Source of the DNA: Candidatus Eiseniibacteriota bacterium
Lineage (GTDB): Bacteria; Eisenbacteria; RBG-16-71-46
NCBI GenBank assembly: GCA_036505355.1
Contig: DASXTP010000102.1
Span: 84-64,083 of the forward strand
Length of the DNA: 64,000 nucleotides
Direction: 5' to 3'
Positions 1-14,903 of this stretch are shown piece after piece. Each line of letters starts with the position of its first letter. The stretch's first letter is position 1. Below the pieces are notes generated by a model. The model saw only the letters and a list, made by a program, of their open reading frames with translations, made no database searches and was not told the DNA's origin. The translations under genes and the position numbers were made by a program.

Positions 1-796
1 CCGCCCGCCACAAGTTGGCCGGCCAGCCGAACGAAAGCCCGCGCACGCCACTCTCCCACGCAGAGACATCGGGCGGCGGCGTGGCGGACGTCGTGGCGTC
101 CCAGGGGTCGGGCCCGGCGAGCACCGAATAGGCCAGCGCCACGTCGCCGGCATGTCGGGCGAAGATGCCGACCTGGTCGAGCGACGAGCCGAAGGCGACC
201 AGCCCATAGCGCGAGAATCGGCCGTACGTCGGCTTGAGGCCGAACACGCCGCAGAAGGCGGCGGGCTGACGCACCGACCCCCCGGTGTCCGAGCCCAGGC
301 CGAGCGGCGCGAGCCCGTAGGCGACCGCCGCCGCCGGTCCGCCGCTCGAGCCGCCGGGGACGCAGGCCAGGTCGTAGGGATTCCGGGTTGGCCCGTAGCA
401 GCTGAACTCGGTGGAGGACCCCATCGCGAACTCGTCCATGTTTCCCTTGGCGGTGATCACGGCGCCAGCCGCCCGCAGGCGCCGGATCACCGTGGCGTCG
501 TAGGGCGGCCGATATCCGGCCAGGATCCGCGACCCGCAGGTCGTCGGGTAGTCCGTCGTGCACAGGTTGTCCTTGACCACCACCGGCACGCCGCGGAGCG
601 GGCCCCTGGGCGTGCTTCGCGCCGCCGCCGCACGCGTCGCCGGGTCGGCGTGGACCACGGCGTGCACGGCCTCTTCCCACGCCCGTGCCGGCCCCTCCCA
701 GCCCGATTCCACGGCCGCCATGGGCTCGGCCTCGCCGCGGGCCACGCGCCCGGCCAGCCCCGAGGCCGAGAGCCGCCACAGCCGGTCGGCGTTCAC
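1..796 (-). CDS. gatA: Glutamyl-tRNA(Gln) amidotransferase subunit A, N-terminal part (gene runs off the window start)
   Basis: Own minus-strand translation from GTG at 796 gives [22 protein letters not shown]...[10 protein letters not shown]...[13 protein letters not shown]...[25 protein letters not shown], the amidase signature. The GTG overlaps the gatC stop (GTGA). Absent from the ORF track because no stop lies in the window. Confidence 0.85.
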
Positions 797-1092
797 GGAT
801 TCAGGTTCTCCACCACCGGAGGGACGAGAAAGAAGTCGCGCTCGCGATCGGGCGAGGCGGCGAGCGCCGCGTCGGCCGACAAGCGCCGCCCGTCGGGCAC
901 GTCGTCGCGCAGCGCGGCGTCGGCCGGGGCGAACGAGGTCGGCTCGCAGCCTTCCAGGTCGAGCCGATCGAGCGCCGCCGCGAAATCGAGGACCGCCGAA
1001 AGCTCGCCGGCCGTGCGGTCCAGGTCTGCCTCCTCGATCCGCAGCCGTGCCAGATGGGCGATACGGGTCACCTCGTCGCGGCTAATGGGCAT
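793..1092 (-). CDS. gatC: Glutamyl-tRNA(Gln) amidotransferase subunit C
   Basis: 99-aa ORF starting [24 protein letters not shown], typical of GatC. It sits immediately upstream of gatA and is coupled to it. Confidence 0.85.
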
Positions 1093-3307
1093 CGGGGCCT
1101 CCGGTCAGGAACCGACCCAGCACCTTGCGGACTCGCGGGCCGAACCGCACCGTGAACTTGAGATCTTCCCCACCTCCCTCGGCGGCGATCACCACCCCGC
1201 GACCGAAGCTCTCATGGAACACTTCGCGCCCCAGGGTGTGAGCCAGCGAAGCGGGCGTGCGATAGGCGGGGCCCGAGGCGTCGGCACCGTCTCTTCGCGC
1301 CGCCCCCGACCGTTGCCGACCTTCCCACGCGCCCGGGATGCGCGTCGTGCTCCACGAGGCGGGAAGGGACTCTTCGCGATCCAAGATCTCCTCGGGGATC
1401 TCGTCGACGAATCGGGACACCTGACCGCCCTGGGCGGCCGGCCCGGTTCCCGCCGCGAAGCGCCGACGCAGCGCCGCGGCCGTGAGCAGCACCTCGTCGC
1501 GAGCCCGGGTGAGCGCCACGTAGAACAGGCGCCGCTCCTCCTCCAGCTCCTGGGTGCTCTCGAGCGCCGAGCCGTGGGGCATGAGTCCCTCCTCGAGGCC
1601 CGCGATCACCACCGCCGCGAACTCCAGCCCCTTGGCGTTGTGGGCGGTGAGCAACAGCACCCGATCGGCGTCTTCCTCGAGCCGGTCCACGTCCGCCACC
1701 AGGGCGGCCTCGGCCAGGAACGCCGCTAGGCCCAACTCCGCCCCCGTCGCCTCGAACTGGGTCGCCGAGGCGATCAGCTCCTCGAGGTTGGCACGCCGAT
1801 CGACGGCCTCGGCTTCCGCTCGATCCTCGACCATCGCCTGGAGGTATCCGGACCGCTCCAGACAGCGTCGCAGGAGGAGATCCACCGGGTCCACCGCGTG
1901 ACGCCTCAGGTCGTCGATGACCTCGAGGAACGCCGCGGCTCCGGTGGCCGCCCGCCCGAGCTCGCCGTCTTGCAGCAGGGCGCGCAGTGCCTCGACCGGA
2001 TCGGCGACCCCCGCCATCAGCCGCTGCTCGATCCGAGCCCGGACGGCCTCGCCCAGGCCGCGGCGCGGGGTATTGACGACTCGCCAGAAGGCGGCCCGGT
2101 CGGCGGGATTGGCCACCACGCGCAGGTAGGCCATGATGTCCTTGACTTCCCGGCGCTGGTAGAAGGCCACACCGCCCACGACCTCGTACCGCAATCCGCG
2201 GTGACGCAGCTCGGTCTCGAGGGCTCGCGACTGGGCGTTGGTCCGGTAGAGCACCGCGCAATCGCTCAGTCGGGCGTCACGACGCCGCCATCTTTCCTCG
2301 AGATACCCGCAGATCCGCCGCGCCTCGTCCACTTCGTCGGCGGCCAATACGAACTTGAGCCGCGGTCCATTCTCCCGCTCGCACCACAGTCGCTTGCCCT
2401 GGCGCGCCCGATTGTGGGCGATCACCGCGTTGGCGGCGTGCAGGATGTTTCCGGTGGAGCGATAGTTCTGCTCCAGCCGCACCACCGTCGCCCCCGGGAA
2501 CTTCTGCTCGAAGTCGAGGACGTGAGCCAGGTCGGCTCCACGCCAGCCGTAGATCGACTGGTCGTCGTCCCCGACGACGAACACGTTGCCGTGCCCGCTC
2601 GCCAAGGAGGCCACCAAGCAGAACTGGGCGTGGTTGGTGTCCTGGTACTCGTCGACCAGCACGTGCTCGAACCGCTTCGCGTAGCGGTCGACCACTTCGG
2701 GATGCTGCAACAGACGCACCGTCTCGCCGATCAGGTCGTCGAAGTCGAGCGCCGATTGGCGCCGGAGCGTCTCCTGGTAGAGCCCGAAGCACTCGGCCAC
2801 CTGGCGCTCATACGGGCTCACCGCGACACGCGCCGCCTCCTCGGGAGAGACCAGCGCGTTCTTGGCGTCCGAGATCTTGGCCAGCAGGTCGCCGACCCGG
2901 AACGACGCGTCGGGCAACTTCAGGCGCCGGATCACGTCGCGCAGAACGCTCTCCTGATCCTCCCGGTCGTAGACGCTGAACCCCGCCGGCCACCACGCCC
3001 CCGGGACGCGCCCCGCCTCGCGGCGCAGGATGCGCAACCCGGTGCCGTGAAAGGTGCCGATCCACAGGCGCTCCGCCGCTTCCCCCACCGCGCGCACGAT
3101 CCGCTCCCGCATCTCGCGCGCCGCCCGGTTGGTGAAGGTGAACGCCACCACCGCCTCGGGCCGCACGCCGCGCTCGATCAGCCGAGCGACCCGGGCCGTG
3201 AGGACCCGGGTCTTGCCGCTTCCGGCCCCCGCTACCACCAGCACCGGGCCGGTCTCGTGCTCGACCGCGGCGCGCTGTGCGGAGTTCAGTTCTGGAATGG
3301 GTCTCAA
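1082..3307 (-). CDS. uvrD: ATP-dependent DNA helicase, UvrD/PcrA family
   Basis: 741-aa ORF with SF1 helicase motifs GAGSGKT, VDEYQDTN, VGDDDQSIYGWRGA, QNYRS and TAHNAKGLEF. The start codon is TTG at 3307. Confidence 0.9.
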   Translation of the reverse strand: MRPIPELNSAQRAAVEHETGPVLVVAGAGSGKTRVLTARVARLIERGVRPEAVVAFTFTNRAAREMRERIVRAVGEAAERLWIGTFHGTGLRILRREAGRVPGAWWPAGFSVYDREDQESVLRDVIRRLKLPDASFRVGDLLAKISDAKNALVSPEEAARVAVSPYERQVAECFGLYQETLRRQSALDFDDLIGETVRLLQHPEVVDRYAKRFEHVLVDEYQDTNHAQFCLVASLASGHGNVFVVGDDDQSIYGWRGADLAHVLDFEQKFPGATVVRLEQNYRSTGNILHAANAVIAHNRARQGKRLWCERENGPRLKFVLAADEVDEARRICGYLEERWRRRDARLSDCAVLYRTNAQSRALETELRHRGLRYEVVGGVAFYQRREVKDIMAYLRVVANPADRAAFWRVVNTPRRGLGEAVRARIEQRLMAGVADPVEALRALLQDGELGRAATGAAAFLEVIDDLRRHAVDPVDLLLRRCLERSGYLQAMVEDRAEAEAVDRRANLEELIASATQFEATGAELGLAAFLAEAALVADVDRLEEDADRVLLLTAHNAKGLEFAAVVIAGLEEGLMPHGSALESTQELEEERRLFYVALTRARDEVLLTAAALRRRFAAGTGPAAQGGQVSRFVDEIPEEILDREESLPASWSTTRIPGAWEGRQRSGAARRDGADASGPAYRTPASLAHTLGREVFHESFGRGVVIAAEGGGEDLKFTVRFGPRVRKVLGRFLTGGPDAH

Positions 3308-3578
3308 GGGCGTGGCTCTTCCCCGTCGCGAGGGTCGGCGGCGTGGTCGACCGGCAATCTAGCCCATGGCCGCCGCGACCGTCCACACGCGGGGGTGAGC
3401 CCACGGCACGCCAACCCTCGCCTTGCTACACCCGAACGCCCCTTACGCGCATGCGGTCACTTTTCGGCCGAGGATCTCGGTCACGCCTATGACCAGGTTC
3501 ATGAAGGGACCTTTGGAGCGCTGCGAACGCTTGGTATAAGGGAGGTCAACACGCCCCGGGGAGGCACACCGTGAGCGC

Positions 3579-5114
3579 CTACTCGTTGTCCCAGGAGAGA
3601 GAGCGACAAACACCGGTCCCCTCCTGGGGTGGCTGGAGCACGTAGTGGGCTGTGACGGCGATGTCGAGCGTGGCGCGGCTGCCGCGGATTGCGACCTCCA
3701 CCCGGTCCACCAAGGCGAGGACGACCCGGCGTCGGGTCTCGAACGAGAGCGGGCCGGCGTCCAGCCGCCGGTTGAGCGCGGCCAGCAGCACCCCTGCCGC
3801 GTCCAGGCGGCCCTGCGCCTCCCGAGCCCGAGCGCCAGCATCCTCCAGGGTGACGAGCTCGGCGGCCAGCGCCTCCCGCTCCTGGCGGGCCAGGTCGAGG
3901 TCGCGCTCGGCTTCGCCGTCGGTGATGAGGCCGCGCCGGTGCAGGGCGATGGTGCGCTCGCGCTCGGCGTCCTTGCCGGCGAGCTGCTTCCTCAGGTCCC
4001 GGAGGCGCTTGGTGGCGAAGGCCTGCTCACTGCGGCCGAGGGTCTGCTTGCGAGCCAGCTCCGCGACCGCGTCGTTCGGGTTGCGCACGATGGTCTCGCA
4101 GTCCTTCCAGATCGCCGCCTCCAGCGCGTCCGCGCGCAGCTGGCGCGCCGGGTGCCGGCCGGTGCACCGGTAGACCGGGTTCGACCCGCCGCCCCCGATC
4201 AGCCGCCGGCCGCACGCCGCGCACCGTAGGACACCCCTCAGTAGGAAGTCCCGCCGACAGTTGCGCTTCGAGTTCGAGAAGTTCCGGGCCAGCCCCGCCT
4301 GGGCCGCTTGCCAGGTCGCCCCGTCCACGATCGCGGTGCACTCGCTCTGGATGATTTTGCCTCCTGCGCGCTTGCGGCGCGGCCCCCAAACGCGGAGCCC
4401 GCGATAGGTCGGGTTCCGCGCGATCCGCCGCACGCTGCACGACGCCCAGCGGCTGTCGCTGCCCTTGGGGGCACGAATGCCGGTGGCGTAGAGCCGGTCC
4501 GCCACCGTCTGGCTGCTGGCGCCGCCGCCGATCATCTCGAAGATCATCCGGACCACCGCTGCGGGACTCACGGTGCTGCCGGGCAGCGGCGTCTCGTCGG
4601 GGACCAGCTTCTTCTCGGCGCTCAGCACATACCCGTAGGGCACGTGGCCGGCGGCGTGGTAGCCCTCGCGCGCCCGGCGATGCAGACCGGCGGTGGTCCT
4701 CGCGACGATGTTGCAGCGCTCCAGCTCGGCCACGCTGGCCAACGTGCTGATGAGGAACCGGCCCGGCGCCGTCGTCGAGTCGAACGGCTCCGCCGCGCAG
4801 AGGATCTCGACCCCGGCCGCCTCCAGCGCCTGGATCGCGGTCAGGGTCACGAGCGTGCTGCGGCCGAGGCGGTCCAGCTTGTAGGTGACCAGCTTGGTGA
4901 TGCGGCCGGCCCTCGCGTCCTCCAGCAGGCGACGCCCCGCCGGCCGATCCTCCAGGCGCGTGGTCCCGGTGATCTCGTCCTCGTAGACGCTCGGCTCCGC
5001 CAGGCCGTGGCGCTCGCAGAAGCGGACGCACTCGGCCCGCTGCGTGGCGAGGCCGCCGCCCTGGTCCTCGGTGCTGGTCCGCAGGTAGCAGGCGATCCCC
5101 GGCTTGTCGCTCAT
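3579..5114 (-). CDS. Large serine recombinase (resolvase/invertase N-domain, recombinase domain, zinc ribbon, coiled coil)
   Basis: IACYLRTSTEDQ catalytic-Ser region, YKLDRLGRS, zinc ribbon CAACGRRL..YRCTG, long Arg/Glu/Ala-rich coiled-coil tail. Start moved from the track value 5237 to ATG 5114 (MSDKPG), which overlaps the upstream ORF stop as ATGA. Confidence 0.85.
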   Translation of the reverse strand: MSDKPGIACYLRTSTEDQGGGLATQRAECVRFCERHGLAEPSVYEDEITGTTRLEDRPAGRRLLEDARAGRITKLVTYKLDRLGRSTLVTLTAIQALEAAGVEILCAAEPFDSTTAPGRFLISTLASVAELERCNIVARTTAGLHRRAREGYHAAGHVPYGYVLSAEKKLVPDETPLPGSTVSPAAVVRMIFEMIGGGASSQTVADRLYATGIRAPKGSDSRWASCSVRRIARNPTYRGLRVWGPRRKRAGGKIIQSECTAIVDGATWQAAQAGLARNFSNSKRNCRRDFLLRGVLRCAACGRRLIGGGGSNPVYRCTGRHPARQLRADALEAAIWKDCETIVRNPNDAVAELARKQTLGRSEQAFATKRLRDLRKQLAGKDAERERTIALHRRGLITDGEAERDLDLARQEREALAAELVTLEDAGARAREAQGRLDAAGVLLAALNRRLDAGPLSFETRRRVVLALVDRVEVAIRGSRATLDIAVTAHYVLQPPQEGTGVCRSLSWDNE

Positions 5115-5290
5115 GGCTTCCCCCGCAGCTGCTGCTGGTAGAGCATCAATCCGTCCAGCACGATGCTGCTCTGGTCGCGCCCCTCGCGGGCACCCTGCAG
5201 CCGCAACCACTTCCTCACGCGGCCCGGCAACGTGCACCGGACTTTCGCGGGATGGTCCCGGCGCGGCGGCCGACCCAGCTTCCTAGCCAT
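5111..5290 (-). CDS. Small ribbon-helix-helix (CopG-like) DNA-binding protein coupled to the recombinase
   Basis: MARKLGRPPRRDHPAKVRCTLPGRVRKWLRLQGAREGRDQSSIVLDGLMLY fits a beta-strand/helix/helix RHH pattern. Its stop overlaps the recombinase ATG. The start is chosen at an internal ATG of track ORF 5111..5353. Confidence 0.5.
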   Translation of the reverse strand: MARKLGRPPRRDHPAKVRCTLPGRVRKWLRLQGAREGRDQSSIVLDGLMLYQQQLRGKP

Positions 5291-5602
5291 TGGCCTTTCC
5301 CTCGTTCTCGGCCGCGCGCTTCCGCGCTTTCTCGGCGGCCACTGCCGCCTCAATCATCGAGTCCTGCGCTTGGTCGAACCGCCGCCGGATCGCAGCCTGG
5401 GACAGGTGGCGGGTCTTCCGGTGCTGCTTGCGGCTTCCCATATCACTTCCTCCTTCCGGGGCCTCGGGGCCCTGGAAGAATTATGCCTCGCACGCCGCTC
5501 GCGCGCTCCGACTATGTTCACAGAGCGGGACTCTGGTTCTAGGAGCGGCCCACCCGTGGTAGCTTCCGGCCCTACGCTCCAACCTGCCCACAGGAGGCCG
5601 TC

Positions 5603-5977
5603 ATGATCACCAAGCGATTCCTCTACGTCTGTGCGGGGCTCCTGTGCCTCGCGCTGCGACATGACCCGGCCGCGCGGGCAGATGCACAATCTCGGGTCGT
5701 CGTCGAATGCGCCTCGGCTGGGCCTGGAAAGGAGCGTTGGGCAGTCATTGGTCGGCGCCTCTATCGGATCGTGTCGCCGGTGCCAGTAAGCAGCCGGAGC
5801 ATTCTAAGTAGCACATCTTTTGACCACGTCACGCGAGATCCGGTCCCGGGCTCGGCCAGGATTGTTGCCTGTGGTTCGTGGGCCGTCGTTCTGGAAAACG
5901 GCGAGATCTGGGATTGCGCGGGTCGAGAAGGCTGGGTGCTCGCTGGGCGCTTCGGCACTCATGAGCGGACGAGATAG
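5603..5977 (+). CDS. Small secreted protein, paralog 1 of a tandem trio
   Basis: Signal-peptide-like N-terminus MITKRFLYVCAGLLCLAL, shared with the next two ORFs. AGGAGGCCGTC precedes the ATG. C-terminal motif VVLENGEIWD resembles NGDVY of the paralogs. Confidence 0.5.
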   Translation: MITKRFLYVCAGLLCLALRHDPAARADAQSRVVVECASAGPGKERWAVIGRRLYRIVSPVPVSSRSILSSTSFDHVTRDPVPGSARIVACGSWAVVLENGEIWDCAGREGWVLAGRFGTHERTR

Positions 5978-6047
5978 TCGTCATCGGGCCCCCACCCCCC
6001 ACACAACAGTCCACGTTCGGCAGTCTGCCCCAAGCCTGGAGGCCGTC

Positions 6048-6272
6048 ATGTTCGCCAAACGCTTCTTCTACGTCTGCGCGGGGCTGCTCTGCCTCGCGCT
6101 CGCCTATCACCTGGGGGCCAGGAGCGCGACGGCACAGGCCACCAAGACCCAGATCGCAACCGCTACTGGAGGGAGCTCTTGTCTCGTGATTCTCGCCAAT
6201 GGCGATGTATACAGGGACGCGTCTGGCGACGGCACGCGATGGGTGAAGGCCGTGAACGTGTTCACGCCCTGA
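6048..6272 (+). CDS. Small secreted protein, paralog 2
   Basis: Internal ATG at 6048 of track ORF 5820..6272. N-terminus MFAKRFFYVCAGLLCLALAYHLGARSATAQA, then LANGDVY...VNVFTP. GGAGGCCGTC precedes the ATG. Confidence 0.6.
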   Translation: MFAKRFFYVCAGLLCLALAYHLGARSATAQATKTQIATATGGSSCLVILANGDVYRDASGDGTRWVKAVNVFTP

Positions 6273-6383
6273 CCGCTACCGAACCGGGGCAGGCTGCTAC
6301 GCTGGGCCGGTACCAGGGGGGGCAGGCCCTTCGACCTCCCGGACCGCCGCACCTGCCGGCCCGGTCCGAACCTGGAGGCGGTC

Positions 6384-6689
6384 ATGTTCGCCAAGCGATT
6401 CTTCTACGTCTGGGCGGGGCTGCTGTGCCTGGCGCTTGCCTACCACCTCGGAGCCCAAAGCGCTGTGGCGCTGGATCGCGATGGTCCAACCGCCGTCGGC
6501 CTGGTGGTCTACCCTGACGCTATGGGCGAGAGCCAGTGGTATGCGCTGGCTTCAAACGGCGACGTATATCATGTCACCAACCGCACCGGGTCTTGGGGCA
6601 AGAACTCGAACATCTTTTCCCCACACCCCCCGGCAAAGCTACCGTTGTCCGAGATACTTCCGGCGAAGACTCCGGGCAGCAAGCGGTAA
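6384..6689 (+). CDS. Small secreted protein, paralog 3
   Basis: N-terminus MFAKRFFYVWAGLLCLALAYHLGAQSAVA, then SNGDVYHV...SNIFSP. GGAGGCGGTC precedes the ATG. Confidence 0.6.
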   Translation: MFAKRFFYVWAGLLCLALAYHLGAQSAVALDRDGPTAVGLVVYPDAMGESQWYALASNGDVYHVTNRTGSWGKNSNIFSPHPPAKLPLSEILPAKTPGSKR

Positions 6690-6703
6690 CAGGCCACGTT
6701 GAA

Positions 6704-7375
6704 ATGCTTATCTCTTTGCTCGCGGGCCTCGCTCTGGCAGCGGTGATGTTTCTCCATGCTGTGCGTGTTAGGTGGATCGAGCGTTTTCGCGAGGCGCATG
6801 CCGATGCCCTTAGCGTGTTGGTCACCGTGCTGGCCACGTTCTGCGGCGTTGCCTGGGCGATCACGTGGACTGATATGGCCACCGATCAGCGTGAACGCCG
6901 AACAGTGGCCCGCCTGCTGGCCGTGGCTTCGCAGGAAATGTTCGTCGGGGCCGCGGATATCGCAATGGACCTGGGGGCGGCACCAAACCAAAGGGGAGCG
7001 CCGCCGGCCGATCCTTCGGTCTTCGGAGCTGTGCTGGAGAATGAAATCGTACTGAAGCACATGACCGATGCGGCACTGGGGAGGACGCAACGGCTTCGTG
7101 TCGTATATGCCAGGGCAAGACGGGACAGCGCAATGGAACGCACCGGGCAGACTCTTCTGCAACTGTCTGAGTTATTGAAGGCGGAGAGCCAGTATCAGAG
7201 CGGCCGGCACGACCGGCGCTGGCTCGCGCTGCAAATGAATCGCTCGGACTCGCTGAGGTGGAAACGTCTTGCGGAAACATTTAGGGCGGAAACGTTTAAG
7301 GAGGGCGTCCTCCACGAGTTTGGAATCGACCGCTACATGGAATTGGTCGACCGATTGTGGCAGTCGGGTTGGTAG
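6704..7375 (+). CDS. Two-TM membrane protein with helical cytoplasmic domain (unknown family)
   Basis: Start chosen at ATG 6704 (MLISLLAGLALAAVMFLHAV = TM1; LSVLVTVLATFCGVAWAITW = TM2), followed by a charged helical domain. The segment is visibly lower in GC: a hand count of 6701-6760 gives 33/60 G+C. Confidence 0.55.
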   Translation: MLISLLAGLALAAVMFLHAVRVRWIERFREAHADALSVLVTVLATFCGVAWAITWTDMATDQRERRTVARLLAVASQEMFVGAADIAMDLGAAPNQRGAPPADPSVFGAVLENEIVLKHMTDAALGRTQRLRVVYARARRDSAMERTGQTLLQLSELLKAESQYQSGRHDRRWLALQMNRSDSLRWKRLAETFRAETFKEGVLHEFGIDRYMELVDRLWQSGW

Positions 7376-7596
7376 TGACGAAGGGGCCGCCGTCGCCGGC
7401 CAGGGCACCGTGCTCATCGTCTGCCCCCGACCTCTGGTCCGCGCGACCCGGCGACCGGCCTTTCTGGCCCATCCTTGGAGTTCGATTCCGAGCGCACCAG
7501 CTCTTGGTGCCTGTACACGGTCTTCACGGCGATCCGGCCGGCGGCGAGCCAGGCCATGGCGACCGCAACCGCCGGGCTTTTAGCACTGAGGAGGCG

Positions 7597-8346
7597 ATGA
7601 TGGCAGGCATGTCATGGTCGGAGGCAGTCGAAGTGATCCAGCCGCATGTGGTTCGCATCTCGACTCCCCAGGGCTCAGGAACCGGGTTTCTCATCTCGAA
7701 CGGCCGCAATAACACAGTCTGCGGTATCGCGACCGCGGCTCACGTGATCGATCACGCTCACTACTGGGAAGAGCCGATCCGGATCGATCACATAAGTTCG
7801 GGCAAGTCTCTTGTAGTCAGGGAGGACGACCGGGCCCTGTTTCTCGACTCGAACCGTGACACGGCAGCCATTCTGTTCGATCGTGGCGAGCTGCCGATGC
7901 CGGCCGATGCGCTTCCACTGGTACCTAAGGCCATGTTCCTGATGGTGGGCAACAGGATTGGGTGGCTCGGCTTCCCGGCCATACCTGCCGCCAGCCTTTG
8001 CTTCTTCTCGGGGGACGTCAGCGCGTGGCTCGGGGAGCAGACAGCGTACCTTGTCGATGGTGTGGCGATCAATGGCGTGAGCGGTGGTCCCGCCTTTCAT
8101 ATTGTGGAGACCGATCCGGGGGCCATCGTGATCGTCGGTGTGGTTTCGTCATACGTACCAAACCGGGCTACGGGCGAGGTGCTACCGGGGCTCTCTATTG
8201 TCAGGGACGTGTCGCAGTTCCACGAGTTGGCCCCGACGTTTGCATCGCTCGACGAAGCCCAAGAGGCTCAGCCGCCTGCGGATGCGCCGCCGCCCAAGCC
8301 CGAGAGTCAGGGCCTCGGGGAAACACCAGCGAGGCGTGCTACCTGA
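7597..8346 (+). CDS. Cytoplasmic trypsin-like (S1/Trypsin_2-type) serine protease
   Basis: Start at ATG 7597 after GAGGAGG. Catalytic-triad contexts appear in His-Asp-Ser order: TAAHVIDH, NRDTAAILF, INGVSGGPAF. No signal peptide. Confidence 0.75.
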   Translation: MMAGMSWSEAVEVIQPHVVRISTPQGSGTGFLISNGRNNTVCGIATAAHVIDHAHYWEEPIRIDHISSGKSLVVREDDRALFLDSNRDTAAILFDRGELPMPADALPLVPKAMFLMVGNRIGWLGFPAIPAASLCFFSGDVSAWLGEQTAYLVDGVAINGVSGGPAFHIVETDPGAIVIVGVVSSYVPNRATGEVLPGLSIVRDVSQFHELAPTFASLDEAQEAQPPADAPPPKPESQGLGETPARRAT

Positions 8347-8361
8347 GCCTGATCCGCCGTC

Positions 8362-8817
8362 CTACGTGCCACCACGGTCACCGCTTCCCGTGCCGTCCGT
8401 GGTCCAGCTCTGGCTCCAGCCGCGACCGGCAATGGTCCAGGCCTGCACGATGGCGCGGTCCAGCATGGCTTCGATCCGCTCCGCGCTCTGACCCACCAGC
8501 CGAGGCGCCAGGCCACAGACGATCCGCCCCAAGCACTTCGCCAGCAGTTCCTCGTACTGACCAACGATCCAGGCCGCGTCCTCGATCGAGACGAGCCCCT
8601 CCTGCTGCGGCTGGGGGGTCTGCTGCTGTCCACCGAGCCGGGGCCTAATATTCTCGTTCCAAGCTCGGTCCGCCGCGGCAAAGTCAATCTTCCCGTCCGG
8701 GAACACGGCCCCATCCAAGTGCCCTCGCGCGACCGCCCGCCGCACGCTCTCGTGGGTCCCCCCAGGGAGACCCCGGCCTCGCCGGTCCCGCGCGTACGCC
8801 CTAGCGCTCCCCCTCAT
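8362..8817 (-). CDS. Small phage-type HTH protein (terminase-small-subunit-like or regulator-like N-terminus)
   Basis: Only the last 151 codons of track ORF 8362..9774 look real. ATG 8817 is preceded by GAGGGGGG. AYARDRRG..THESVRRAVARGHLDGAVFPDGKIDFAAADRAWNENI matches the HTH pattern common at N-termini of phage small DNA-binding or packaging proteins. Confidence 0.45.
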   Translation of the reverse strand: MRGSARAYARDRRGRGLPGGTHESVRRAVARGHLDGAVFPDGKIDFAAADRAWNENIRPRLGGQQQTPQPQQEGLVSIEDAAWIVGQYEELLAKCLGRIVCGLAPRLVGQSAERIEAMLDRAIVQAWTIAGRGWSQSWTTDGTGSGDRGGT

Positions 8818-8994
8818 GCCCCCCTCATCAGCGCCCGGCTGTCGGCTGCCTTGCCCCGCGGGCTGTGCCTGGCCACATTTCGCCCGTCGCCGGGACCCGC
8901 GCCTCGTTGGACGGGGGAGGACCCGCAAATCGTACGGTGGTACCATTGACAAGCCGTTCTCCCTGCCGCTGCACTCCCAACGTCGGAGGCCGTC

Positions 8995-9495
8995 ATGCGC
9001 ACTCACCTCACCTCGCTTCTGGTCGTTCTCGCCGGTGCGTCCGTCCCGGTAGCGGTCCATGCGACCGACGTCGTCTATGCCCTCACCGGATCGGCGACCA
9101 CGATCGTCTGTCCGCCGGAAGAGTGCACCTCGGGCGTGACGACGACCGGCAGCCTCACGGCCGGTTCTGTGCCCCCGGGGGCGCCGACGGCCGGTGATTT
9201 CCGGCTCGATCTTGCTTGGATTCTGCAGCCCACCGACCCGTGCCGCGCGCGGGGCGCAGACGGCACACTGACGATCAACTGGAGCGACGGCACCATCACC
9301 GTCGCAAGCGTCACCGGGCGGTTCCGCGATTCCAAGCCGGCACTCTTCGTGTCCGGCAGGGTCGGTGCCGGTTCGACCGGAAGCATCTATCAACCAGGGG
9401 ATCCTTGCAGGAGCGTGGTCAACGCCCTCCCAGAAGACCCGTGCGTTGCCGGCACGGTCGCGGTCACCGGAGAGGTCGAACTCCGCACGAAGTAG
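8995..9495 (+). CDS. Secreted Cys-containing protein (unknown family)
   Basis: Signal peptide MRTHLTSLLVVLAGASVPVAVHA. Same GGAGGCCGTC-ATG initiation context as the tandem trio. Confidence 0.55.
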   Translation: MRTHLTSLLVVLAGASVPVAVHATDVVYALTGSATTIVCPPEECTSGVTTTGSLTAGSVPPGAPTAGDFRLDLAWILQPTDPCRARGADGTLTINWSDGTITVASVTGRFRDSKPALFVSGRVGAGSTGSIYQPGDPCRSVVNALPEDPCVAGTVAVTGEVELRTK

Positions 9496-9692
9496 TCGGA
9501 GTCCGCCCGGGGTGGTCAACAGCCGCTTCACGTGCGCATTCCCCCGCACGAATCGCGTGACTTCCCGCCGCAAAGTGAGTCCCGGGGCACCGCGCGGAGC
9601 GGCAGCCGGCCCCGGGGCGCGCGCACCGATGACGCTCGTGGCTGCACGAGCGCGGAGACCGGACGATGCCATCCGGCCGATGCGCGTGGCTA

Positions 9693-9875
9693 TCAATGGG
9701 ATTCCATAGCGGAAGTCCAAAAGATCAACTCGTGCGTCGTGCGCGAGCGCCCATCCAGCTTCCGAGTGAGCCAATCCTCAATGCGCCGCATCTCCTCGAA
9801 GTCGCCGACGCCCTCGATCGCAACACCGAAGTCACGCTTGATCCGCCGCTCCACGGATGTAGCCTGACCGGTCAT
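9693..9875 (-). CDS. Hypothetical small protein
   Basis: 60-aa ORF whose ATG overlaps the stop of the upstream ORF (ATGA at 9872-9875). Mostly G/C third positions. Confidence 0.35.
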   Translation of the reverse strand: MTGQATSVERRIKRDFGVAIEGVGDFEEMRRIEDWLTRKLDGRSRTTHELIFWTSAMESH

Positions 9876-10555
9876 GCGGCCTCCTCGATGATCTCGATCA
9901 CCGGATCACGGCCGCGAGAGCTGCGACCAAGGATTATTTCCCGCGCCCATCCCAAGCCGACCTCGTGCTCGCTGCCCACCTCCCAGACCTGACCAGCGAA
10001 GCCGACGATGGATTTGAGCACCCGGATACGACAGCGCTTCAGCGGTTCGACGGGCAGCGCTGGTGCCGGAGGGGGCGCCGACGGTGCGACCGGCCGCTTC
10101 GATCGCTCGACGACTTCGAGGGCCTCGCGGCGCTCACGAGCCAACCGCTCGCGTCGCGCAATCACTCGCGGATCGTCGTTGTCGGCGATCGTGGCTCGGC
10201 CGCGGTGTAGAAGATTACGCCCCAAGAACTCGTCCACCAGGACACTTTCGCCGACGACGCCGAGGCGACAGCCACCGGGCGCAGCCGGATCGGCAACGAT
10301 CACGGGGCTCGTCAGCGTGACTCTCAATCGGGGCGCCCTGGCGAGCTCCCGCTCCTGCTCGCGCTGCTCGGCCTCGGCGCGGAGGCGATCGCCCAACAGC
10401 GCGCCGGGCGGCTCGGTCGTCAGTATCGGCAACGGCGATTTCCCGATGCCCTCCACGCCCTCGTGCCGAGCCTGCCGCGATGCGAGCAGCGGTTCGGTCG
10501 CGTCCAGAGAACGCCACCGTCGTTCCTCTTCAGCGTACGGCCGGATCCAGCTCAT
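9872..10555 (-). CDS. Hypothetical protein (element backbone)
   Basis: 227-aa ORF in the same minus-strand operon, coupled to the downstream small ORF. No recognisable motifs. Confidence 0.45.
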   Translation of the reverse strand: MSWIRPYAEEERRWRSLDATEPLLASRQARHEGVEGIGKSPLPILTTEPPGALLGDRLRAEAEQREQERELARAPRLRVTLTSPVIVADPAAPGGCRLGVVGESVLVDEFLGRNLLHRGRATIADNDDPRVIARRERLARERREALEVVERSKRPVAPSAPPPAPALPVEPLKRCRIRVLKSIVGFAGQVWEVGSEHEVGLGWAREIILGRSSRGRDPVIEIIEEAA

Positions 10556-10585
10556 GCTTGCCTCCTTGCTTGGTGCTCGCAGCGA

Positions 10586-11221
10586 TCACCGCTCAGGGAC
10601 GTTTCTCCTCCACGTCTCTTCTACTTCGCGCCTCAGATTCGGCGCCCATTCCCTTCGGACCACGGTCCGCGCCAGCGAGAGCCATCGCAGCTTGGCCGGC
10701 AGCCTCACGGTGCGGCGGAAGAGGTAGAGCAGCGTTGATCGCAGCTTCCCCGGCTGCTGTTGAAAGACTCCAACCTTCGGCACGATGTAGCTGCGGATCG
10801 CGCCTCTGCGACTCCGGCCCGCCGTGGTGCTCGGGAACAATCGCTGGAACCAGAAGCGGGGCGGAATACTGGATCGTGGCGATGGCCGCGCGCCCACCGG
10901 GATCGCGACGTTCTGGCCGACGAAACCGGTGCGCTCACCGCCTTCCTCATAGTGGGGGAGGAGCAAGCGCTCTCGCTGGCCGACAGCGACCGTGGTATTC
11001 AACCGGAACGGCGTGGCCCTCGGCTTGATGACCGCGACCTGCCGCCGGACGAACTCTTTGCGGACCAGGAAGCCGCGCTCGAGCTGGGCTCGTTCCTCGC
11101 GCTGGACCGCGTCGGCGGTACGGTTCAACGCGTTCGAGAGGGCGTAGGAAAACCTCTTCTGCCCCTTTCGCAGACCCAACAGGACCCGAGCGCTATTCGT
11201 ACTGACCTTGATCTGAATCAT
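10586..11221 (-). CDS. Hypothetical protein; faint resemblance to phage head-tail/morphogenesis proteins (not reliable)
   Basis: Start moved to ATG 11221 (MIQIKVSTNSARVLLGLRKG) after GAGAGGGGG. First ORF downstream of the iteron array. Confidence 0.5.
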   Translation of the reverse strand: MIQIKVSTNSARVLLGLRKGQKRFSYALSNALNRTADAVQREERAQLERGFLVRKEFVRRQVAVIKPRATPFRLNTTVAVGQRERLLLPHYEEGGERTGFVGQNVAIPVGARPSPRSSIPPRFWFQRLFPSTTAGRSRRGAIRSYIVPKVGVFQQQPGKLRSTLLYLFRRTVRLPAKLRWLSLARTVVRREWAPNLRREVEETWRRNVPER

Positions 11222-11392
11222 GCAGCCCCCTCTCGGTGCCGCCCCGTGCGACGACCGCCTCCACTCCTGGAGCGGTCCAGGGCCGGCGATCGTCCCGGTG
11301 CTAGGGTCGGCGGCCGCTGGTTCATCGGCGAACCCGGCGCGTGCCACGACGACCGCATCAGGCTTATTGTCGTTGCGACACCAACCGCCGCT

Positions 11393-11570
11393 GGTTTCCG
11401 CCTGCCTGGCGTTTCCGCCGCCGTTCCGCCCCCCTTAAGGGGGAGGCGGAATGGCGGAACGGAAGCGGTACCGCCTGGTTCCGCCTGCTTTCCGCCTGGT
11501 TTCCGCCTGCCTTTCCGCCTTGTTTCCGCCTGATCGGGTTTCCGCCAAGTTTCCGCCAGGGGTTTGCCGC
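11393..11570. repeat. Iteron array: at least 10 direct TTTCCGCC/GTTCCGCC copies plus 2 inverted copies flanking a CCCCCTTAAGGGGG palindrome; putative replication origin
   Basis: Direct copies start at 11395, 11412, 11423, 11478, 11489, 11500, 11512, 11523, 11539 and 11550, with a degenerate copy at 11561. Inverted GGCGGAA copies at 11445 and 11453. The palindrome at 11430-11443 is centred on TTAA. Spacing is mostly 11-12 bp. Confidence 0.75.
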
Positions 11571-11579
11571 AGGAGGGCA

Positions 11580-13502
11580 TCATTCCTCCGGCTCGGGGTC
11601 GCCGGCCGGTCGGTTCGTGGGGGCGTAATAGCCCCGCCGCGGCCGGTCGATCACCCGAAGGACATCGGTCATACGCTTGAGGGCGCGCTCGATCGACCTC
11701 GCTGGCAGGGGTGGGGCCTCGGCCGCGGCGGCCGCGATGATCCACTTGGCGGGGCTGGCCCCCTTCTCGACCAGGTACTTCAGCACGAAGTCTTCGGCCC
11801 GCTCGGTGGTGGTCTCGCCCTCGTCGACGGATCCCTCCCCGGTCAGGACGATCGGGGCATCGGGGCCTGCGGTCGTGTAGCGGATTCTGAGACTGGCGCG
11901 CTCGCCGTCCCGCCGCTTCACCTGGACCAGGTCCATGAGCCCCCGGGCCGGCTGGGACGCAACCCACACGGTGCTGGCCTGGGTGCTGAAGGCCACACTT
12001 CCATGCACGAGGTGCAGCTTCGCCAGGTGCCCGTCGGAGGCCGGCTTCCGCAGATGGCCGATCAGCGCGAAGGTGGTGTCGTAGTCCCGCCGGAGCCGAA
12101 ACAACGTCGCATACACTGCCGCCACCGCCCCCGCGTCGTTCCCATCGATCCCGGCGAACACCTGCTGCACCGAGTCGAACACCACCAGCAGTGGCCGGTG
12201 GGCGCCCAGCTCGTACTCGATCCGCTGCAGCCCCTCGGCCGTCGTGAGGTTCACGCCCTGTTGTGAGGCCACCCGCAGCTGGTGGTGCGGGGCACCGAGG
12301 CGCAGGTAGAGGCGCGACACCTCGCGCACCGATTGCTCCTCGTCGAACACCAGCACCGGCCCGGCCCTGGCCACCTGGATACCGCACCAGGCGCCGCCCG
12401 TGGCCACCGCCATCGCCAGCGCCGCGATCGTCGTGGACTTGCCGATCCCCCCGTCGCCGGGGGCCAGGGCGATGTCCCCCTCGGCCAACCAGCCCGGCAC
12501 GATCCACGGCACCGCGGGAATCCCCGCGTCCCGGATCGTGGCGAGGTCCAGGTACTCCACCTGGGGCGCGTCGGGCTTCTTCTCCGCTGCCCATCGGGGC
12601 GCGGCCGCGACCAGCGCATCGAGCCGAGCGCGGCGTTCGCCGGTCGGGACGGGGCCGAGCCAGTCCACCAGGTCGGAATGCTCCCCGAGGTCCGAGAACC
12701 GCACCGTGCGGATGTCGTAGGTGCCGACCGCCGCTAGCGATGCAGCCTCCGCTCGGCCGTGGGCTCGGCCGGCGGAGTCGTGGTCCTCGAAGACCACCGC
12801 CGCCGCGGCCCCACGAAGCTGCTCGGCGTGGCCCGGGGTCCACTTGGGGGCTCGGCCGTCCTCCGAGGCGCCACCGACGTTGCACGTGCCCGGCAGGCCC
12901 AGGGCGATCAGCGCGTCGACGACGCGCTCGCCCTCGCCGATGTAGACGGTCCCGCCGGAGCGCGCCGCTTCGATCACGGCCGCGGCGTTGTAGAGCAGGG
13001 CCCGGGTGTCGGGCTTGGCGAAGCCCCTCGGCAGGTCGCGCGGCCAGCACCACTCGCCAGCGTTCCAGTACTGGCGTTGCAGCTTCACGGTCTTGCCGTG
13101 GCGCAGGTGGCGCACCACTCGTAGCACCGGGGTGCCCGCCGCGTCGCGATAGTCGTGGTGGACGACCTCGGTGCTCGGGCTCGCGCCGTCGCCGTTGTGC
13201 GAAGGGGCGCCGCCGAGGATCAGGTCGCGATCCGCGTCCGTGGCACCCAGCTCCTCGAGCATCAGCGGCAGCGCGGCGGCCGGCCCGCACACCTGGCACG
13301 CGGCGATCACCAGTACCTGGTCGCCCGCGCGGGCGTCGGCCGAGGGCTTGAGATCGTCGTGGAGGCAGCAGCAGAACTTGAACGCTGTGTGGCCAGGGTT
13401 CCAGACGACGCGCTTCCGCGCACGGATCAGAAGCTCCGCGAACCGCTCCAGGCCCGCGCTCAACGAGGCTCCGCGCGGTCGATGGCGATGTCGGCGAGCC
13501 AA
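11580..13502 (-). CDS. Bifunctional primase-helicase (CHC2-like zinc finger, Toprim, AAA_25/RepA-like ATPase, C-terminal wHTH-like tail)
   Basis: CCCLHDDLKPS...CQVCG resembles the DnaG zinc finger CPFHxxxTPS...C.GCG. Toprim motifs VYIGEGERVVDAL and FEDHDSAG. Walker A PGDGGIGKST in an AAA_25-like context. The track start is TTG 13502; TTG 13463, overlapping the upstream stop as TTGA, is an equally likely start. Confidence 0.85.
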   Translation of the reverse strand: MARRHRHRPRGASLSAGLERFAELLIRARKRVVWNPGHTAFKFCCCLHDDLKPSADARAGDQVLVIAACQVCGPAAALPLMLEELGATDADRDLILGGAPSHNGDGASPSTEVVHHDYRDAAGTPVLRVVRHLRHGKTVKLQRQYWNAGEWCWPRDLPRGFAKPDTRALLYNAAAVIEAARSGGTVYIGEGERVVDALIALGLPGTCNVGGASEDGRAPKWTPGHAEQLRGAAAAVVFEDHDSAGRAHGRAEAASLAAVGTYDIRTVRFSDLGEHSDLVDWLGPVPTGERRARLDALVAAAPRWAAEKKPDAPQVEYLDLATIRDAGIPAVPWIVPGWLAEGDIALAPGDGGIGKSTTIAALAMAVATGGAWCGIQVARAGPVLVFDEEQSVREVSRLYLRLGAPHHQLRVASQQGVNLTTAEGLQRIEYELGAHRPLLVVFDSVQQVFAGIDGNDAGAVAAVYATLFRLRRDYDTTFALIGHLRKPASDGHLAKLHLVHGSVAFSTQASTVWVASQPARGLMDLVQVKRRDGERASLRIRYTTAGPDAPIVLTGEGSVDEGETTTERAEDFVLKYLVEKGASPAKWIIAAAAAEAPPLPARSIERALKRMTDVLRVIDRPRRGYYAPTNRPAGDPEPEE

Positions 13503-13708
13503 TGCGCCAGATGTTGGAGGACGTCGTCCGGGAGCGCCGCGGTCAGCGAGATCCCGTCATGGGGGCCGCCGACCGCCGTGAGCGTCAGCTCCACCGCGGG
13601 CTGGTCCGGGGTGCCGCAGGTGTCGCACAGCCGATACTCCAGATCGACGTGACGCGCCGGGTCAATCGGTTGGTTGTTGCGAGGGCCGTCCCTGGCCGGC
13701 GTCGTCAT
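13460..13708 (-). CDS. Hypothetical small protein upstream of the primase-helicase
   Basis: 82-aa ORF containing CDTCG. Its stop overlaps the candidate primase start, and its ATG overlaps an upstream ORF stop (ATGA at 13705-13708). Confidence 0.4.
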   Translation of the reverse strand: MTTPARDGPRNNQPIDPARHVDLEYRLCDTCGTPDQPAVELTLTAVGGPHDGISLTAALPDDVLQHLAHWLADIAIDRAEPR

Positions 13709-14014
13709 GGGTGGTGCTCTTGATCGGCGGCGGGATGCTGCGGGGAGAGCTGGGGATCAGCGGTGGGGACGGGGTCGCGGAGGATGGCTTCGAGGGCAGC
13801 CACCACCTGCGGCACGCGCTGCGGATCGGGTGCGTGGCGCGGCTCGATTCGAAGCTGCGGTGCTCGTCTCCTGTGGCCCCTGCTGCCCAAACAGAACCTC
13901 CCGACAAAAGACAACGACCAGGTCGATGGCTTCTTCCATCTCGATCCATCGCACCCAGCCGTTCCATTGCCGGGAGTCCAAAGTCCATTCGCAGCTCGCG
14001 GGCGAGCCCCGCGT

Positions 14015-14215
14015 CTAATCGCTCGTCGGTATCCTCCGCACCAGTTTCCGAACTTCGGCCCATTCGGGCTTAGACAGCGCCCTTTGGACTCTCAGCGCCG
14101 TCACCCGCCACACCCGCTCGCCAGCGAGGTACCGCTGCACCGTCGCCGGACCAACCTCGGCATCGGCGGCCAGGCGTCGCAGGTCCATCAGATCCAGTTG
14201 GAGCTCGTTGCTCAT
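14015..14215 (-). CDS. Small HTH DNA-binding protein (Cro/excisionase-like), first gene of the minus-strand replication operon
   Basis: Only the last 66 codons of track ORF 14015..14875 are taken. MSNELQLDLMDLRRLAADAEVGPATVQRYLAGERV, preceded by GAGGAGAGAG before ATG 14215. Confidence 0.5.
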   Translation of the reverse strand: MSNELQLDLMDLRRLAADAEVGPATVQRYLAGERVWRVTALRVQRALSKPEWAEVRKLVRRIPTSD

Positions 14216-14247
14216 GGCTCTCTCCTCTGACTGCCGACTTTGCCTGA

Positions 14248-14829
14248 AAGCTGCGCCGTCCGCTGCAACTATTTTGTCCTCTGGAGCAGAGCGCTCACGA
14301 CACGGCCATCGATTCCGCCCGCGCTGGCAGAGGGCGGCGTGGCACTCTGCCGAGCCGATGCGACCGCACCAGACTTTGTCGCTCGCTCTCCCACCTCTCC
14401 GATCACGCCCTGCCCGATGGACTGGTTTCGCTGGCCGCCGCGAGCCGGGCCACCACCGCCGAGCTACTGGCTGTGCTGGCCGAAGTCGACCGGCGGCAGC
14501 TGTACGTCGAGGCGGGCTACCCATCGATATTGACGTACTGCGTCCTCGAGCTGCGGATGGCCGAGGATGCCGCCGAGGAACGAATCGATGTGGCCCGAGC
14601 CGCCCGGCAGTTCCCGGGCATCTTCGAAGCCGTGGCAGAGGGCCGGCTGCACCTGAGCGCCGTCGTCCTACTGGCTCCCTACCTGACCCAAGAGAACGCC
14701 GACGAGCTCTTGGCGGCGGCCGCGGGCAGGACCGAGCGGGAGATCGAGGAACTGGTGGCCCAGCGATTCCCACGCCCGCAGGAGCCGCAGGAGAGGCTGC
14801 CGGCTTCACCATCGCGGGCGGAGGAGTAA
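14248..14829 (+). pseudogene. Truncated DUF222-type N-terminal domain of an HNH endonuclease family gene (no HNH domain, no canonical start)
   Basis: Open frame from the stop at 14245-14247 reads LSDHALPDGLVSLAAASRATTAELLAVLAEVDRRQLYVEAGYPSILTYCVLELRMAEDAAEERIDVARAARQFPGIFEAVAEGRLHLSAVVLLAPYLT. This matches the DUF222 pattern. It stops about 135 residues in, before any HNH motif. The only start-like codon is an internal GTG at 14473. Confidence 0.5.
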
Positions 14830-14903
14830 CTCGCGCCGGGCGAGCTCCATGTGCCCCCAGTGGCCCCGGCGGCACGCGAGGGGGCCGTTTCGGATCCTCG
14901 ACC

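Follow-up and report, generated by a model that had tools for sequence, protein, structure and literature searches.

Anti-phage genes are known to be stored in integron cassettes (10.1101/2024.07.02.601719; 10.64898/2026.03.17.712381), and trypsin-like proteases are recurrent executioners of defence, where they are fused to sensors and accompanied by conserved, adjacent pro-effectors (PMC12642450). In this work, we analysed a window of 64,000 nucleotides (nt) of contig DASXTP010000102.1, the whole stretch of DNA under study and the one to which all positions refer, focusing on two neighbouring open reading frames (ORFs) at 6704-8346, which a preliminary description had proposed as a two-gene defence module consisting of a protein with two transmembrane (TM) helices, hereafter the 2TM protein, and a serine protease. 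Our results do not support these ORFs as a pair. On balance, we consider it probable that they are unrelated pieces of cargo, and that the protease gene is a decayed one-gene integron cassette encoding a stand-alone cytoplasmic protease of conflict or defence. To our knowledge, the known protease-based defences all rely on a sensor and a pro-effector; a bare protease working alone, if this proves true, would be a simpler design.

Several described systems resemble this locus in part. As in the phage-resistance cassettes of mobile integrons (BRiCs) and of sedentary chromosomal integrons, the protease family takes the form of a promoter-less ORF bounded by a GTTRRRY site and an attC hairpin, it is found in same-strand arrays, the gene recurs with unrelated attC sites in different hosts, and defence genes lie adjacent. 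Unlike them, the copy in the window lies outside any integron and has lost its attC, and none of the tested integron defence cassettes described encodes a protease (10.1101/2024.07.02.601719; 10.64898/2026.03.17.712381). With HtrA, DegP, DegQ and DegS (MEROPS S1C) the protease shares the chymotrypsin fold, the His-Asp-Ser triad and the GxSGGP motif; however, identity is 17-22%, there is no PDZ domain, signal peptide or membrane anchor, and extra motifs and a proline-rich tail are present. The trypsin fold, the defence-island setting and proteolysis as the proposed execution step are also common to the protease-effector modules (Pepco, EACC1, metallo-beta-lactamase (MBL)-fold nuclease and alpha/beta-hydrolase; PMC12642450, PMC12799240), in which the protease is fused to or placed under a sensor (Avs, Hachiman, STAND) and accompanied by a conserved adjacent pro-effector, whereas the protease of the window is a bare 248-amino acid (aa) protein with neither; Pepco and EACC1 measure ~115 aa, in contrast to the 223 aa of the 2TM ORF, which matches no family. 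Weak similarity in the protease domain (E = 2e-6 to 3e-4) extends to the LmuA-protease of Lamassu, the reverse transcriptase (RT)-protease of class XI defence-associated reverse transcriptases (DRT) and PDC-S45, but coverage of these longer models is partial, and the partners LmuB/C and the reverse transcriptase are absent. Lit, from the e14 element of Escherichia coli, is a solo, element-borne cytoplasmic zinc metalloprotease that works as an abortive-infection switch, being triggered by the T4 Gol peptide and targeting EF-Tu. By analogy, Lit may be the closest functional counterpart for the mechanism proposed below, as both are solo, element-borne and cytoplasmic, with the difference that the enzyme studied here is a serine protease.

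The protease ORF is preceded by the Shine-Dalgarno sequence GAGGAGG, and the public gene call (P0003) starts one codon later, giving 248 aa; the start is considered sound because an N-terminal hydrophobic stretch is absent and homologues have the same length. The protein matches Pfam Trypsin_2 with 28.3 bits (cut-off 27.6), and the codons of the catalytic residues His49 (7741-7743), Asp88 (7858-7860) and Ser162 (8080-8082, in the motif GVSGGP) were located, the three residues being invariant among 20 homologues. No hydrophobic stretch or signal peptide was found at the N-terminus, and no PDZ domain was detected by Pfam. These features support a predicted cytoplasmic enzyme with an intact triad, as the preliminary description had claimed. 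The protease domain is followed by a proline-rich C-terminal tail of 35 aa ending in RRAT, conserved in homologues and disordered in the AlphaFold2 (AF2) model (predicted local distance difference test, pLDDT, 79.5). In Foldseek searches, the best matches of this model were the protease domains of DegS, DegP and HtrA (TM-score ~0.6, 17-22% identity, E ~1e-9), and miscellaneous viral trypsin-like proteases were also near; a sequence search retrieved no relative among solved structures. Regarding a grouping with secreted Deg/HtrA-like enzymes, a possibility that the preliminary description had left to be checked, the nearest folds are indeed those of this family, while the PDZ domain and the export signal are missing.

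Homology searches with the protease yielded 2690 matches, the top 120 of them all 61-85% identical and of ~245-260 aa. Clustering of the family at 50% identity gave 651 clusters with E <= 1e-3 and 185 with E <= 1e-30, nearly all stand-alone. The family is uniformly of ~220-260 aa, consisting of the protease domain and a short tail with no sensor domain, and displays the specific motifs HYWEEPIRIDH, LCFFSG and GVVSAYVPNRATG. Its thousands of environmental members carry no experimental annotation.

For context analyses, ~150 loci with relatives of the protease were gathered from the encoding contigs of database matches, 56 species genomes, 3 viral contigs and 80 metagenome contigs. When positions 6500-8600 of the window were compared with all these loci by blastn, shared DNA was limited to 7587-8344, that is, the ribosome-binding site and the protease ORF. 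All-against-all clustering of neighbouring ORFs gave no partner gene common to the mobile branch, which includes the window copy, the neighbours of the protease differing at nearly every locus, and neither tblastn nor phmmer found a protein similar to the 2TM protein in the ~150 loci. An analogous, non-homologous TM partner was also considered and judged unlikely, since TM neighbours occur at background frequency (20 of 65 loci have a hydrophobic segment in an ORF next to the protease on its strand, versus 29% of all ORFs in the loci). At one locus (L012, 7126-7971), the gene for a DUF4062-like protein of 281 aa terminates 30 nt upstream of the protease; the two genes share an unusually low G+C content at third codon positions (GC3; 0.40 versus 0.39 for the protease) and may form a local pairing.

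The 2TM ORF itself proved to be an orphan. Translation confirmed the layout given in the preliminary description (223 aa, a 221-nt spacer and 249 aa), and Kyte-Doolittle hydrophobic segments at residues 1-23 and 31-56, followed by an all-helical, charged remainder, agree with the two N-terminal TM helices and charged helical domain it reported. The frame shows a coding-like G+C content by codon position (0.65/0.46/0.69), has no Shine-Dalgarno sequence and starts 14 nt past the stop codon of the preceding small gene, the last of three genes for small secreted proteins that it abuts. No match was obtained in Pfam, PADLOC, PHROGs or NCBIfam, and among 5.8 billion proteins the only homologue was the protein itself, both in a whole-length search and in one with residues 95-223; the single-sequence AF2 model (pLDDT 49.7) was too poor for a fold search. 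There is no demonstrable tie between this ORF and the protease, and the claim of a two-gene module fell when co-occurrence was checked. The defence-finder and family searches that the preliminary description had called for returned nothing for the 2TM protein, and PADLOC gave weak, partial matches for the protease.

The relatives of the protease revealed a cassette structure. The attC sites, R''-L''...L'-R' imperfect inverted repeats of ~57-141 nt that are characteristically diverse in sequence, were sought directly 3' of the ORF. They were assessed by a home-made consensus-plus-pairing score that takes the stop codon as its anchor, not by IntegronFinder's model, and by folding as single strands, because their variable lengths led MAFFT to misalign the 3' arms when an alignment for a covariance model was built. 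In 13 of 130 distinct loci the stop codon of the protease falls within the R'' box (..CTAAC) of an attC scoring at least 12, and in 16 of 130 within that of one scoring at least 10, a value reached by none of 650 shuffled flanks. The site begins inside the last codons of the gene, GCC ACC TAA C comprising both the stop and the R'' box, and this arrangement is intact in L029, L003, L078 and others. The stop-anchored sites vary widely in sequence and are found throughout the family, behind proteases that share 53-78% identity with that of the window. Folded end to end as single-stranded DNA, they formed hairpins with z-scores of -4.7 (L003), -7.0 (L029) and -2.6 (L016); the site of L009 forms an inner stem (z = -3.3), and those of L001 and L012 are eroded. 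On the other side of the gene, a GTTRRRY site lies within 60 nt 5' of the protease start at 21 of 114 loci, versus 5.9% in shuffles. In L003/L004, the protease is one of a series of small ORFs on a single strand, behind each of which a 75-nt element (CCTAAC...GTTAGGC) recurs almost unchanged. The L003/L072 array (L072 1-20618) contains over 30 cassettes in one orientation and 16 strict attC candidates; Fic, glyoxalase, GyrI-like, nucleotidyltransferase, YkuD and Rce1-like cassettes are among its contents, and no integrase lies within the 26 kb seen in L072. A further locus (L107) also has the protease in a cassette array. The cassette boundaries enclose the protease ORF alone, with no second ORF. 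Hence, in many loci the family is a single-gene integron cassette, and the recognition of this widespread and strongly conserved protease as such is new here.

The window copy is most likely a decayed cassette of this kind, extending from ~7575 to 8385 and now part of a satellite-like element. At the end of the gene, GCT ACC TGA G stands in place of GCC ACC TAA C, so that the stop is TGA and not TAA, and the adjoining remnant shares 33 of 41 positions with the centre of the L029 attC (score 29; shuffles 15.8 +/- 2.6, with none of 500 as high). Its nearest relative in the protein phylogeny is the L029 copy, which comes from a metagenome-assembled genome (MAG) of Vicinamibacteria and has an intact attC. 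Upstream, a degenerate R' box, TTTAGCA, was noted when CTTTTAGCACTGAGGAGG was aligned by eye with GTGTTAGGTGGACTGTTGGAGGAGG of L078. No attC hairpin forms at the window copy (z = -1.46, no better than shuffles), the L'' arm and the 3' half being gone, and no attC-like site was found in window positions 1-16000; the copy has no intact attC, GTTRRRY core or array with intI/attI, and its neighbours are the tandem family of small genes and the orphan ORF. The idea that the whole low-G+C block at 5.4-8.4 kb is a cassette array was ruled out, as there are no attC-like sites between the small paralogues or before the 2TM ORF. Regarding L029, its protease cassette is split by a ~1.7-kb insertion (4318-6000), with residues up to ~53 encoded at 4175-4317 and the rest at 6001-6585, and its attC lies at 6580-6663.

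The protease gene has spread horizontally. The family is scattered over at least 10 phyla with 60-85% protein identity across them, and phylum labels change 19 times on the protein tree, near the random expectation (shuffled mean 20.5), the exception being one clade of Acidobacteriota treated below. Relatives were present in 56 of 185,579 species genomes, each of these 56 being an environmental MAG. Compared with 12 relatives, the window copy shows nonsynonymous divergence (dN) of 0.13-0.29, with synonymous divergence (dS) above 1.8 or not computable. Depending on the host, the gene has a GC3 of between 0.31 and 0.71, and in L001, L012 and L011, the three clearest loci, its neighbours have higher values. 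Given this constraint on dN, the saturation of dS and the range of GC3, protein identity reflects strong purifying selection over a long divergence and not a recent sweep. Two MAGs of a single study, labelled Acidobacteria and Chloroflexi (L026/L027), carry an identical protease and PDC-S37-like neighbour, which reflects either faulty binning or gene transfer in the very recent past. A possible kinship between the window element and a Planctomycetota element that also carries the protease (L011) was discarded, as tblastx found no common backbone.

Based on these findings, we propose that the gene is a promoter-less single-ORF cassette of a kind captured by integrons and spread among many soil and sediment phyla, and that the window copy has come to rest among the cargo of a small integrative element and has lost its attC. 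The product would consist of an HtrA-like catalytic domain and the conserved tail, with no PDZ domain, sensor or export signal, and would act alone as a conflict or defence enzyme in the manner of abortive infection, kept inactive by its substrate specificity or by the tail until, upon infection or a stress signal, it cuts a conserved protein of the host or the invader. That the protease constitutes a new stand-alone anti-phage (abortive-infection) system, distributed by integrons as a one-gene cassette and using the tail as a latch or docking element, is a narrower proposal that we regard as possible yet tentative. With its recurrent placement next to restriction, DISARM, Gabija and Abi genes, the cassette is a small candidate, easy to clone, for a new defence function carried by one gene, and the preliminary suggestion of defence cargo is in this sense plausible for the protease by itself, whose relatives often lie beside defence genes, and not for the pair as a module.

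A number of observations weigh against the proposed reading. Such strong sequence conservation is unusual for proteins engaged in an arms race. At least 16 of ~125 protease loci adjoin restriction-modification (RM), DISARM, Gabija, Abi, PDC-S37 or DUF4238 genes, a count that has no matched control set and comes from contigs many of which are too short to score. The PADLOC matches of the protease, to LmuA (2e-6), RT-Protease_XI (7e-5) and PDC-S45 (3e-4), span only its residues 12-78, 17-168 and 4-57, respectively, and profile scans found no RT or LmuB/C-like neighbour. No relative was found by tblastn in 50,697 cultured phage or 72,556 plasmid records; the only public sequencing run containing the stretch is one soil metagenome DNA run, which provides no RNA evidence; and the cassette origin of the window copy, which has no intact attC, is drawn from a 40-nt remnant and the phylogeny. 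In other, plainly housekeeping contexts the gene follows ruvCAB (L005) or groESL (L007), or lies near a ribonucleotide reductase gene (L065), and a clade of 10 Acidobacteriota (Thermoanaerobaculia and unclassified members, 100% support) carries it vertically, with a common downstream gene at 8 of 10 loci. In six loci of this clade (L039, L047, L048, L049, L051 and L057, at ~4700-6000) the protease lies 43-127 nt downstream of a same-strand permease of the AmpG family of the major facilitator superfamily (TIGR00901, E = 2.6e-83), which hints at a role in cell-wall recycling for the acidobacterial branch. A housekeeping or stress protease, devoted to cytoplasmic quality control or peptide recycling (e.g., of AmpG-imported material) and merely circulated by integrons with no part in phage conflict, is the main rival, supported by this AmpG-linked vertical clade and the ruvCAB and groESL loci; the closeness of the fold to the HtrA/Deg quality-control proteases also favours it, and strong purifying selection would fit a conserved cellular substrate. 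We nevertheless find it rather unlikely, since the gene is rare, patchy across phyla and compositionally foreign in L001, L012 and L011, the mobile branch with the window copy shows no conserved metabolic neighbour, the AmpG match falls under the NCBIfam cut-off (280 versus 350 bits), and the protease recurs beside RM, Abi, Gabija and DISARM genes.

A selfish function, in which the protease would be an addiction-type toxin that stabilises its element or would degrade a host defence or repressor protein to aid the element or a helper phage, is in our view improbable. It would suit the mobile platforms that carry the gene (integron arrays, the integrative element of the window, viral contigs and loci flanked by insertion sequences (IS)), the CI/S24 repressor that adjoins the protease at one locus, and the toxin-antitoxin cassettes common in large integron arrays, such as that of L072 with its Fic cassette; however, the cassette boundaries leave no room for a small antitoxin-like ORF, the phage and plasmid records hold no relative, and the stable vertical transmission seen in one clade speaks against an exclusively selfish function. 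Even less probable is the module originally proposed, in which a membrane effector or anchor, the 2TM protein, would be cleaved or controlled by the protease, the partner evolving too fast to be recognised elsewhere. The two ORFs are indeed adjacent, on the same strand and of similarly low GC3, in L011 (Planctomycetota, beside an AAA_25 gene) a 217-aa helical protein with an N-terminal TM segment is encoded 190 nt downstream of the protease, and the activation of membrane effectors by proteases is an established principle (PMC12642450). Against it stand the lack of any homologue of the 2TM protein in all searches, the end of the shared DNA at the ribosome-binding site of the protease, the 70% G+C of the 221 nt between the ORFs, the single-ORF cassettes of the arrays, the background frequency of TM neighbours, the position of the 2TM ORF directly behind the small-gene block with no Shine-Dalgarno sequence of its own, and the absence of both the sensor-fused protease and the small, conserved, directly adjacent effector of known modules (PMC12642450). 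A protease that acts alone in conflict or defence is the reading we retain.

The features of the window and the neighbours found within ~3 kb of the protease in related loci are listed in Table 1. Among the latter, the Gabija genes of L035 may be the next cassette in the array of the protease, and DUF4238, present in a viral contig, protects on its own against T7 (PMC9122126).

Table 1. Features of the window and genes neighbouring the protease in related loci
Feature	Position or locus	Strand	Remarks
Large serine recombinase (integrative element)	3579-5237		Resolvase, Recombinase and Zn_ribbon_recom matches (Pfam)
Three small paralogous signal-peptide genes (tandem family)	5603-6689	+	First in the cargo region of the element
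2TM ORF, 223 aa	6704-7375	+	Orphan, outside the protease unit
Spacer, 221 nt	7376-7596		T-loop-like motif 7477-7499; degenerate R' box ~7577-7583; Shine-Dalgarno 7588-7594
S1 serine protease (HtrA-like fold), 249 aa, signal-less	7597-8346	+	Trypsin_2 match, triad, AF2/Foldseek
Eroded attC remnant	8341-8384	+	R'' ACCTAAC changed to ACCTGAG; next 40 nt resemble the L029 attC centre
Primase/AAA_25 helicase (integrative element)	11580-13502		Profile matches
Type I RM	L001, L084, L085, L120
Type III RM	L012, L023, L024, L102
Dcm and Vsr	L016
DISARM DrmD and methylase	L013		DrmD, E = 6.5e-201
GajA	L035, 6718-8804		E = 9e-217, full-length; starts ~90 nt past the attC of the protease cassette
PDC-S37-like helicase-nucleases	L026/27, L064
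AAA_21/Ppl-like ATPase	L022
AbiJ-like protein	L021		16 nt upstream of the protease, matching low GC3
AbiTii, McrA-HNH, DUF4062	L012		Dense defence island, with Type III RM
DUF4238	L069		Viral contig
CI/S24 repressor	L070		Beside the protease
IS481 transposases	L017, L031, L117

The integrative element lies between uvrD (end 3307) and an Omp85-type gene (stop 14904), and the large serine recombinase and primase/AAA_25 helicase found in it bear out the earlier assignment of the two ORFs to the cargo of an integrative element. On the plus strand, the cargo runs from the three small paralogues through the 2TM ORF and the spacer to the protease ORF. With 62.3% G+C against a window mean of 69.0%, the segment 6704-8346 is below 99.5% of equal-sized windows, and the GC3 of the 2TM ORF (0.69) and of the protease (0.71) contrasts with 0.87-0.92 in uvrD, the recombinase and the primase-helicase. 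This segment is compositionally foreign cargo, in agreement with the preliminary description, whose hand counts of 33/60 and 37/60 are exact and whose control count at 20101-20160 is 48/60 rather than 49/60. The spacer has a host-like 70% G+C and is flanked by the two low-G+C ORFs, which for this reason are regarded as separate blocks. The cargo region is a patchwork of separate acquisitions and not an operon, which corrects the annotation of this satellite-like element.

Some minor features were also recorded. Convergent with the protease gene, an open frame of 470 aa on the minus strand (8362-9774) has no family match and a weak pattern of G+C by codon position (0.74/0.60/0.72); it is probably over-long, and its last codons pass through the attC remnant. 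Another minus-strand ORF (10586-11347) matches phrog_1924, a 'minor tail protein' (E = 2.2e-15), and no other recognisable structural genes were found in the element. Finally, a plus-strand motif in the spacer, GGAGTTCGATTCCGAGCGCACCA, which occurs once in the window, resembles part of a tRNA, namely the T-loop with the 3' acceptor end; it was not called by ARAGORN or Rfam, its T-stem pairing is non-canonical, and it could be either what is left of a decayed att site from an earlier insertion or a product of chance.

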